Shown: piece by piece, positions 15,001 to 28,318 of the stretch | Position numbering within the stretch: position 1 is the first letter of the stretch | Layout of the letters: every line of letters begins with the position of its first letter | Assembly: GCA_012026655.1 (NCBI GenBank) | Contig: JAAILG010000635.1 | Span: forward strand, 1 to 64,000 | Source: Hydrolagus affinis | Taxonomy: Eukaryota | Length of the DNA: 64,000 nt | Direction of reading: 5' to 3' | Position numbers and translations under genes: made by a program | The notes under the pieces: generated by a model | Database searches by the model: none | Told to the model about the DNA's origin: nothing | What the model saw: only the letters and a program-made list of their open reading frames with translations

Positions 15001-15879
15001 ACAGTGCCTCTCCCCCATTCGCCACACCCCATCACCCATACCGCCTGCCATCACTAGTTGATCATTTGACATCAAGCAAGCACAGGTTCGACTCCTTTCT
15101 CTAAATTTAATCTGATTTAAGCAAATAGACATGCTATTTCCACATGCTGCTTTCAAAATACATATTAATGCATTAAATTTGCATGTATGGGGTGTGGGGA
15201 TGGGGGAGAGGGTAAATATTCTCTTTATTAAGATGTTGATGTTAAATGCAGGGAAATTGAATGTTTTGTGCTCGTTCTTGATATTAAACACACAGGTCAG
15301 TTACAGCTTGCAATAAATGCAGGATGCCTTAACCCCAACCTCAGAAGAGCACTTGCTCCTCATGTACCAATATATTTCCATTTGACCAGCTGTCGCTATA
15401 GCTCCTCAGAGAAAACTTGATCAATTAGAGTCACATTACAGTCAGCGTTTTGCTGCGGACCCATAATCACTGGAGAACTAGTTTGAGATTATTTTACTCC
15501 GCAGCTCTCACAAACTATATTTAAGAAGGCAACATATTTTAATACACCTAACACTGAAATGTTATTCACACCGATCCTCTGTTTAAATGGGTTTGCAGTC
15601 TGTTTCACTCTGATGATAAATTTCAACTCGAAAATCTCCCCGATGTTGACACTGCTGCTATAGACTGTTTTTACGTTGGTCCCTTAATAGCCAACAGAAG
15701 TCAGAAAGTCTCTTAGCTCAGTCAAGGCTGGATTTGAACTCAGAACCCAAAGGTGAAAGGATATTCTTGTAACCCACTGTGCTAACATTAAGCTACAGAG
15801 TATACAAATACACTGCGCAGGCTATAGAAAGGCAATCGATGTTTCCAGATACATACACACTGTTGTTTTACCTATTGAA

Positions 15880-15975
15880 ATAATAATCCTTGCATTTGAT
15901 AACGCACCTTATCATGTTGTTGAAACATCTCAAAGTGCTTCACAGGATATACTGTATATTTTGCAGGCAAAACGG
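15880..15975 (-). mobile_element. SINE 3' tail fragment
   Basis: taataatccttgcatttgata...ctcaaagtgcttcacagga. Confidence 0.75.
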
Positions 15976-16124: not shown

Positions 16125-16352
16125 TTGCTATAAGTCAAAAACAAAAGTTGCCGGGGAAACTAAGCAGGTCAGGCAGCATCCATGGAGAAAGGAAAAAGAG
16201 TCAATATTTCGGGTCTACAACCCTTTGTCAGAACTGGGGCTCAGTTTCCTTTCTCCATAGATGCTGCCTGACCTGCTGAGTTTCCCCAGCAACTTTTGTT
16301 TTTGTTTCACATTCCCAGCATCTGTAGTATTTTGTGTTTTGCTATAAGTCAA
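16125..16352. mobile_element. Short palindromic Penelope-like retroelement insertion with 14-bp target-site duplication
   Basis: TTGCTATAAGTCAA at 16125-16138 and 16339-16352. 59-bp inverted arms at 16137-16195 and 16245-16303 with 3 mismatches. Hammerhead-like motif in the loop. Confidence 0.75.
16198..16237 (-). ncRNA. Degenerate minimal type I hammerhead ribozyme motif
   Basis: Minus strand reads AGTT-CTGACAA-AGGGTtgtagACCC-GAAA-TATT-GACT, giving stem I, a CUGANGA-like box, a stem II hairpin, GAAA and a palindromic stem III. G8 is A, so it is probably inactive. Confidence 0.6.
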
Positions 16353-16548
16353 TCCTGCCCCCATTCCCTACAGATCACCTGCCTTTCATGATATGTCAAT
16401 CAACCTGCCTTTGCACCAGAAACAAACACTCAAAGCTGGGAATCTAAAATACAAACAAAACACTACAAATGCACAGCAGCTTGAACAATGTACTAAAGAG
16501 AAAGCTAATTACGTTGAATTCGATAGAATTCATACTATAGATTCCATT

Positions 16549-16849
16549 GGTCCTGTAGCTCAGTGGTTAGAGCACCTGCCTTACAGGCGAGAGACCTGGG
16601 TTCGATTCCAGGCAGGGCAAAATGTTAGGCAAGTTTCCTTACCACAAGCCTGATAATAATCCCTCAAGAAAACAATAATAAATTGGTCATTTCAATCTAC
16701 GACTGTTTGTGGGTCACCGTTGTGCGCAATTGGCTGCCGTGTTTTGCCCACAAATGATACAGTCAATTCACTTTACAATATATTCTGTGAAGCGCTTTGA
16801 GACTTCTAGAAGGCCTGAGAAGCACTATATCAAATGGAAGGATTATTAC
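16549..16849 (+). mobile_element. Full-length tRNA-derived SINE (dominant family)
   Basis: A box TAGCTCAGTGG, B box GGTTCGATTCC, body GGCAAGTTTCCTTAC, core TGTGCGCAATTGGCTGCCG, tail ATATCAAATGGAAGGATTATT. Confidence 0.92.
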
Positions 16850-17194
16850 TGCACAGAAATAGGCCGTGCCAACTATTTTGTTTATATTCCACACCATCCT
16901 CCACCTCTCCTATTCTTCTCTCCCGTACACCTCTCGTCCCCTCTGTTCAGTTGTGTCCTTACATGGGAGCTCAAGCCCAATTGTGTACTAGTCCAATCCA
17001 CACCCTCACATGTTACATGTTTTAGCACTTAACTACAGACTCTTGTTCTTTTGTGGCCTATCTGTATTACAAAGTTAACTGTTTTTGCAGCAACTCATAG
17101 TGCAACCGTGCAGTACAAATCAGTATTAAAACACATTGATTTGATTAATTAAAAATAAGACCATTTAATATGAAGCTCTTTATTACATTGAAAT

Positions 17195-17523
17195 GCTCCT
17201 GTGGCTCAGTGGTTAGAGCACTTGTCTTGCAAGCTGGGGAGACCAAGCTGGGGAGACCTGTGTTCGAATCCAGGCAGGTCATGGCGAAACTTGGGCAAGT
17301 TTCCTTACTCCACACGCCTAATAATAATCCGTCCCCCAAAAAACACAATAATAAAATTGGTAATTTCAATCCACGACTGTTTATGGGACACTGCTGTGCG
17401 CAATTGGCTGCCGCGATTCGCCCACAAATATACAGTCACTTTACAGTATATTATGTGAAGGGCTTTGGGACGTCGATAAGATGTGAAAAGCACTTTATCA
17501 AATGCGAGGATTATTATTATTAT
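17195..17523 (+). mobile_element. Full-length tRNA-derived SINE with a 14-bp internal tandem duplication
   Basis: Same architecture as 16549. CAAGCTGGGGAGAC occurs twice at 17230-17257. (ATT)n tail. Confidence 0.92.
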
Positions 17524-28013: not shown

Positions 28014-28318
28014 AGCCCTGTAGCTCAGTGGTTAGAGCACTCGCCTAACAAGTGAGAGACCTCGGTTCAATTCCAGGCAGGGCGAAGCCTTCAGCAAGTT
28101 TCCTTACTCCACATGCCTAATAATAATCCCACAAAAAAAATTGGTGATTTCAATATATGACTGTTTGTGAGACACTGTTATGTGCATTTGGTTGTTGTGT
28201 TTTGCCCACATATATACAGTCAATTCACTTTACAGTGTATTCTGTGAAGTGCTCTGAGACAGCTAGATAATGTGAAAAGCACCATATCAAATGTAAGGAT
28301 TAATATTTTTATTATTAT
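28014..28318 (+). mobile_element. Full-length tRNA-derived SINE
   Basis: A and B boxes, body, core and tail as in 16549. Confidence 0.92.

Follow-up and report, generated by a model that had tools for sequence, protein, structure and literature searches.

A stretch of the Hydrolagus affinis genome, analysed here at its full length of 64,000 nt (contig JAAILG010000635.1, positions 1 to 64,000; hereafter the window), carries at positions 16125-16352 a short palindromic insert with a hammerhead-like sequence in its loop. A preliminary description took this insert for a complete non-autonomous, ribozyme-bearing retroelement, and the locus raises the question of whether the palindrome is an element in its own right or a product of the way in which a larger element inserts.

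The layout given in that description was largely reproduced. A perfect 14-nt direct repeat flanks the insert (16125-16138 and 16339-16352), and the inverted arms, previously given as 59 bp with 3 mismatches, were measured as 60 nt with 3 mismatches (16136-16195 and 16245-16304), enclosing a 49-nt loop (16196-16244). The border between the target site duplication (TSD) and the element can be placed only to within 3 nt at either end, as the last 3 nt of the left TSD copy and the first 3 nt of the right copy also match the element ends; the arm pairing comes to 57 nt once the 3 nt in common with the TSD are excluded, and in a second arm comparison it stretches to 65 nt at 92%. The right arm reaches 37 nt past the paired part (16305-16341), so that the arms are not terminal. 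The hammerhead-like string was found as quoted on the minus strand, from 16235 to 16199, with the core CTGACAA in place of CUGANGA. No second full copy of the insert was found in the 64-kb window. The window holds nine stretches of N, 1,853 nt in total, none of them less than 8 kb from the insert, and the element is untouched by them. A tRNA-Val-headed repeat, likely a common SINE family, lies to the right of the insert on the plus strand (16548-16850), with further copies at 17198-17278, 28014-28085 and 47140-47211 and an opposite-strand piece at about 15876-15956.

BLAST alignment to two natural loci of the same family (L092 and L123) resolved the insert into two copies of one sequence, the pseudo-LTR (pLTR) of a longer element. 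Numbered from the predicted hammerhead cut site, the short arm (16136-16241, sense on the minus strand) runs from −39 to +67 and has no tail, while the long arm (16245-16341, plus strand) runs from +8 to +104, lacks the hammerhead and ends in a 37-nt tail (16305-16341, plus strand). This tail is present on one arm only, and in longer copies it continues into the 5' part of an open reading frame (ORF). The short arm differs from the family majority at 7 of 107 columns and the long arm at 3 of 97. Between them lie 3 nt of filler (16242-16244), forming an arm-arm junction that is specific to this copy, with the 19-mer spanning it occurring once in the genome.

Relatives of the insert are abundant in the assembly (1.11 Gb, eukaryotic). 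A DNA search returned 2,891 candidates, the best 40 of which were scored and showed 85-92% identity over the whole 200 nt. Exact genomic matches numbered 1,929 for an arm 36-mer, 465 for the intact 35-nt hammerhead pattern and 3,374 for a degenerate hammerhead core, as compared to zero for the reversed control in each case. Against these controls the matches cannot be put down to chance. The counts are lower bounds on arms and not on insertions; 1,929 is thus the minimum number of family arms in the genome. Among the best 30 copies, 29 could be parsed, and their junctions were all different, as they also were across 47 two-armed loci sampled separately (see below). Arm lengths in the family range from less than 50 nt up to kilobases. 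Since the junction differs in each copy, the sizes form a continuum and the arms are identical to the pLTR, we conclude that the palindrome is a by-product of insertion.

Individual loci illustrate the range of these structures. A kilobase version (L093:2617-5876) has arms of 2.4 kb and 0.8 kb lying head to head with the tail on one end, and a third pLTR copy is found 1.9 kb beyond the pair. Two insertions situated 8 kb apart on one contig (L253 and L254, G000:C283) have arms with the same coordinates arranged as mirror images, which probably reflects either inverted duplication of the locality or an artefact of assembly. Long fillers were seen in the junctions of L205, L223, L228, L231 and L059, some made of extra short pLTR pieces and some of other repeat DNA, which suggests that templates were switched repeatedly as the ends were joined. 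Another subfamily, which has diverged further (L282, L284, L289, L293, L298, L304 and others), in which stem II/loop II of the ribozyme and the downstream sequence are changed, likewise ends at the 5' border of the ribozyme.

The longer copies point to the parent element. 5' of the hammerhead unit they continue through a pyrimidine-rich sequence of about 280 nt and then reach the end of an ORF. Among 30 loci that contain this endonuclease end of the ORF, 23 have the hammerhead unit in sense orientation within 450 nt downstream; four of the remaining seven are interrupted by a contig end. On the other side, where the tail passes directly into the ORF region, 30 loci that contain the 5' portion of the reverse transcriptase (RT) were examined, and a whole or partial pLTR unit was found in 8, four of them including the hammerhead. 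A 336-aa open piece matched the Pfam GIY-YIG domain (PF01541; 25.3 bits, cut-off 22.6, E = 1.9×10−5), and from the CCHH motif of the endonuclease (EN) a CxxC lying between the positions of GIY and YIG could be read, together with a downstream His. Upstream of it, DKG and YIDD motifs of RT were read in broken frames of L092 and L093, and in the Atlas clusters nearest to the RT piece 44% of the members have RVT_1 (score 0.97). Pfam gave no match on the RT pieces or on a 79-aa EN end, a PDB search with the RT piece returned chance-level matches only, and among the loci examined there was no intact ORF, nor any locus with a pLTR on both sides of one. Because the unit is found on both sides of an ORF with GIY-YIG and RT features, it is identified as the pseudo-LTR of an autonomous, endonuclease-bearing (EN+) Penelope-like element (PLE). 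The preliminary description had suggested a Penelope-like origin and had named a link to a GIY-YIG/RT ORF as a check, and both were borne out.

The RT-EN linker contains a CX4CxxC motif in four loci (L069, L071, L078 and L083). Such a CX2-5CxxC motif is given in PMC8557442 as a mark of Neptune and Nematis that is absent from Penelope and Poseidon. A "Poseidon-type" label that we had considered was dropped on this ground, and the parent has a linker motif of the Neptune type. In four near-full-length loci (L123:445-640, L116, L110 and L127) up to about 200 nt are common to all upstream of the 5' hammerhead; this stretch is unlike the usual 3' UTR, joins at about −31, and may represent an exon lying upstream, a 5' leader that was captured, or the mark of a subfamily. 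Close to the insert itself, 94 nt to its right, 26 nt on the minus strand (16435-16460) are 85-88% like the element tail and are perhaps a decayed fragment of the same Penelope-like family.

To describe the architecture of the family we sampled loci by the arm 36-mer, which selects for neither end of the arm. Starting from the first 100 listed of the 1,929 matches, 90 were fetched (the last three were skipped, as were seven that struck an insertion a second time), and a further four second hits and L254, one of two identical-looking loci, were then dropped, leaving 85 loci with 132 arms. This sample favours young and two-armed copies, and since two arms offer two chances to match, the share of pairs is inflated; some of the "solo" loci are arms of larger inversions, and arm ends, taken from local alignment, are uncertain by a few nt. 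An earlier sample of 90 loci chosen by the intact motif was excluded from the 5'-end counts, as it selects arms that reach −30.

The 3' ends of the arms fall into two groups, at about +60 to +80 and +96 to +113. Head-to-head pairs were found at 47 of the 85 loci and tail-to-tail pairs at none, and in 46/47 pairs a long end was combined with a short one (p = 3×10−13, binomial against 0.5), so that the tail of about 37 nt is present on just one arm in 46/47 two-armed insertions. Both 3' ends are in use among the 38 one-armed copies (22 long, 16 short). TSDs of at least 10 nt with at most one mismatch flank 38/47 pairs, as compared to 5/279 mismatched flank pairs used as control, but only 15/37 one-armed loci (control 2/217); they are mostly 13-15 nt long, with a range of about 10-18 nt. 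The exact TSD of the insert thus has counterparts in most of its two-armed relatives, in line with the earlier view of one discrete insertion. Of the ends that copies might share, the 3' ends do recur in two groups, but the central junction is different in every copy examined.

The two arms of a pair overlap on the template by at least 20 nt in 42/47 cases. The arm reaching further 5' is the tail-less one in 26/47 pairs, as in the insert, and the tailed one in 19, with two ties. Extra bases are present at 29 of the 47 junctions, 14 show an overlap and 4 are flush; the overlaps amount to a few nt, several of them lying on the palindromes of stem I or stem III. Two non-CpG subfamily alleles agree between the arms in 61/68 comparisons (49% in shuffles, 0 of 2000 as high), while CpG decay is common to both arms in 67/93, which is not beyond chance (68% in shuffles, 220 of 2000 as high). 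Shared alleles, combined with CpG decay that agrees no more than by chance, argue for a common template and not for later homogenisation. The median divergence between arms is 3.3%. Primer-template microhomology, although seen at both ends of the insert, was not found as a family rule: among 24 exact TSDs the end trinucleotides are heterogeneous.

At the 5' side, 38/132 arms end at −35 to −29, the 5' border of stem I, and 23 more at −28 to −21, as compared to 3/132 near the cut site (−4 to +4). Ribozyme cleavage as the source of the arm 5' ends was rejected on this count; stalling of RT at the ribozyme was rejected by reasoning, as a stall would fall 3' of the structure. The sequence at the pile-up fits both the consensus of an initiator-like start and that of a splice acceptor. 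In Drosophila Penelope, an intron ends at the 5' end of helix I (Cervera 2014). Two RNA runs, whose source species may not be the host, gave 6,673 and 5,860 reads, most of which map to the pLTR, with the two directions about equally represented; 79-82% of the reads continue into unlike sequence, and no pile-up of read starts was found in these two runs. The reads fit read-through of dispersed copies.

The ribozyme itself presents a different picture in the family and in the insert. The CUGANGA core is kept in 47/68 arms covering the ribozyme and GAAACGTT in 40/68, and the family sequence has an NUH cut site, stems I and II, and a self-complementary palindromic stem III. By these features the family ribozyme is typical of the minimal type I hammerheads that PLE pLTRs carry (cf. 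PMC4209133). Covariation was assessed by eye on 100 listed of the 3,374 core matches: what separates two subfamilies is a U-G to C-G change on one side only, together with a change in the loop, and no common two-sided stem change stood out. In the insert the hammerhead, as the preliminary description called it, is present as a remnant (16199-16235, minus strand), comprising the stem I 5' strand (16235-16232), the core (16231-16225), stem II (16223-16211), GAAA (16210-16207), a 4-nt palindromic stem III (16207-16204), the predicted cut between 16203 and 16202, and the stem I 3' strand (16202-16199). It has lost G8 (G8A at 16226), and the CG of stem III is altered at both bases, all three being CpG-type changes, and its stem III self-duplex is calculated at +1.6 kcal/mol, versus −1.7 for an intact copy. 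A change at the same position, G8C, abolishes activity of the anole ribozyme (PMC11167929). With G8A and a weakened stem III, the insert's ribozyme is predicted to be inactive. The Rfam hammerhead models matched neither the insert nor three loci with an intact motif, so that their silence is uninformative. The long inverted arms fold strongly (MFE −109.5 and −115.7 kcal/mol), and on a transcript of the locus the ribozyme would be boxed inside a long hairpin. We infer that the hammerhead came along as a pLTR passenger, its CpG sites decaying afterwards.

We therefore read the insert, with a probability of roughly 0.7, as two head-to-head, 5'-shortened pLTR copies of an autonomous endonuclease-bearing Penelope-like element, likely made in one event on site and predicted to have been dead on arrival. 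The steps that could produce it are all read from genomic fossils. The GIY-YIG endonuclease would nick both strands about 14 nt apart, and each 3'-OH would prime reverse transcription on element RNA, one at about +105 and the other at about +70, the stretch between the two start sites becoming the tail. Independent priming is suggested because the tail-less arm so often owns the loop, here as well, so that neither arm is a plain copy of the other. Both cDNAs were likely made from one uncleaved RNA, often ending by run-off close to the hammerhead's 5' border; that the template was uncleaved is suggested by the concentration of 5' ends at this border and not at the cut site. Host end joining would then link the two cDNA ends, in the insert with 3 nt of filler, as may be judged from the mixture of extra bases, overlaps and flush joins in the family. 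In LINE-1 twin priming, too, one RNA is primed by the second target strand as well, and an inversion within the TSD results; L1 segments are not known to overlap on the template, whereas the arms described here mostly do.

We tentatively go further, at odds somewhat short of even, and propose that the stumps record the process of integration: one uncleaved RNA would serve both nicks, which prime at two fixed sites, the RT on the outer site would displace the inner cDNA, and both would run off at the RNA 5' end, a start site or splice acceptor, at the 5' border of the hammerhead. Parts of this scheme have been seen in vitro with PAc (Poseidon of Anolis carolinensis), for which PMC11167929 describes cutting and extension of both target strands, two start sites bounding the tail, and use of uncleaved RNA. 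With the PAc protein the two strands were not seen to differ in start site, so that the strict combination of a long with a short end does not follow by itself. In the literature covered by our search, mostly open-access papers, we found no report on PLEs of two-nick priming with one RNA or of long/short pairing.

Other routes to the same structure differ in where the second arm comes from. For related elements self-priming with an antisense template has been proposed (Arkhipova et al. 2013, PMC3846280), in which case the RNA or first cDNA would fold back near the hammerhead, be copied into a hairpin and have one end trimmed by the endonuclease on insertion. Such a fold-back would account for the head-to-head polarity of 47/47 pairs, for the agreement of alleles between arms, and for the 14/47 overlapping junctions, several of them on ribozyme palindromes. 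We nevertheless consider it unlikely, since fold-back of a target-primed cDNA requires the loop to lie in the tailed arm, contrary to 26/47 pairs and to the insert, and since 29/47 junctions contain extra bases and both 3' ends occur among one-armed copies, which is what two start sites would predict. A hairpin that formed away from the chromosome and was trimmed later may still be the source. One RNA per nick, delivered by a protein dimer and possibly paired via the palindromic stem III, would be the simplest source of the template overlap, and it is compatible with the predicted dimer of the anole protein (PMC11167929), with the self-complementary stem III of the family and with the 7/68 allele comparisons that disagree. 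However, two equal RNAs should also produce long/long and short/short pairs, barring an asymmetric dimer, and none was seen in 47; the 10% disagreement, moreover, is close to the level expected from later mutation given the divergence between arms. We therefore hold two RNAs to be improbable, and one RNA is the simplest reading of the allele sharing, although two RNAs would also yield shared alleles if one subfamily dominated at a time.

The complete non-autonomous unit of the preliminary description, retrozyme- or SINE-like and transcribed and copied as a palindrome, is very hard to maintain. Its TSDs, the many copies of similar size (the best 40 of 2,891 candidates) and the existence of PLE-derived non-autonomous retrozymes (10.64898/2026.07.22.740005) made it plausible, but the junction is different in each copy and unique here, sizes are continuous up to kilobases, and longer copies link to the ORF; the similar size follows from fixed 3' starts and the 5' pile-up. 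Retrozymes, in addition, are head-to-tail tandem arrays, the insert is head-to-head, and its ribozyme core is mutated. A DNA-transposon MITE, also raised at the outset, or a miRNA hairpin gene would explain the strong folding of long inverted arms and some weak matches to miRNA families, yet we give this practically no credence: the arms are not terminal, the ends are asymmetric and the TSD length is variable, the sequence continues into an RT and GIY-YIG ORF, and the Rfam miRNA scores are far under gathering (41.7 versus 73 bits).

The architecture of the insert is already published, and the insert is a further instance of a known insertion product. EN+ PLE insertions with an inverted 5'-truncated pLTR, a one-sided tail of 30-40 bp and a TSD are described in PMC3846280 (Pen2a_Av) and PMC8557442, and our family has the same head-to-head inverted pLTRs, tail at one end, short TSD, and pLTR at both ends of the RT-EN ORF. 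Compared with the rotifer examples in these sources, the arms of the insert are only about 100 nt each and enclose no ORF, the TSDs are mostly 13-15 nt as opposed to 8-10 nt, and the origin put forward by the authors is self-priming. As in PAc (PMC11167929), two RT start sites bounding the tail would lie just 3' of a minimal hammerhead, both strands would be cut and extended, and cleavage would be dispensable; the parent here, however, carries the CX4CxxC linker of Neptune/Nematis that Penelope and Poseidon lack, and its tail seems, judging from broken copies, to sit immediately 5' of the first likely start codon, whereas that of PAc lies inside the ORF. Pairing of long with short ends is not reported in the available part of the PAc account.

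With published minimal type I hammerheads the family shares the CUGANGA core, the unpaired base before stem II, G10.1-C11.1, a short stem I and the palindromic 15.2-16.2, as well as the occurrence of mostly solitary copies from truncated PLEs, opposite-strand pairs having been noted there; it differs in a stem II of 5 bp, and the insert in having lost G8 and the stem III CG. The non-LTR retrozymes (10.64898/2026.07.22.740005) are similarly short, non-coding and related to PLE pLTRs, with a type I hammerhead, but they have an intact hammerhead in each tandem unit, in contrast to the single broken hammerhead of one head-to-head pair.

As a single locus the insert has little weight, being one decayed copy among thousands; it also serves as a caution for annotation, since such hairpins resemble MITEs, miRNA precursors or retrozymes and yet are none of these. 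As a population, these insertions put numbers on the open question of how PLEs form inverted, tailed insertions, features that PMC8557442 terms undefined. The clues are the rule of one long and one short end (46/47), the alleles common to both arms, and 5' ends that lie at the ribozyme border and not at the cut site. If the tentative scheme of one uncleaved RNA primed at both nicks is true, a single mechanism would cover the TSD, the inverted pLTR with its one-sided tail, and the great number of hammerhead fragments of about 100-140 nt, and the stumps would show in vivo that the template which is inserted is not set by ribozyme cleavage.
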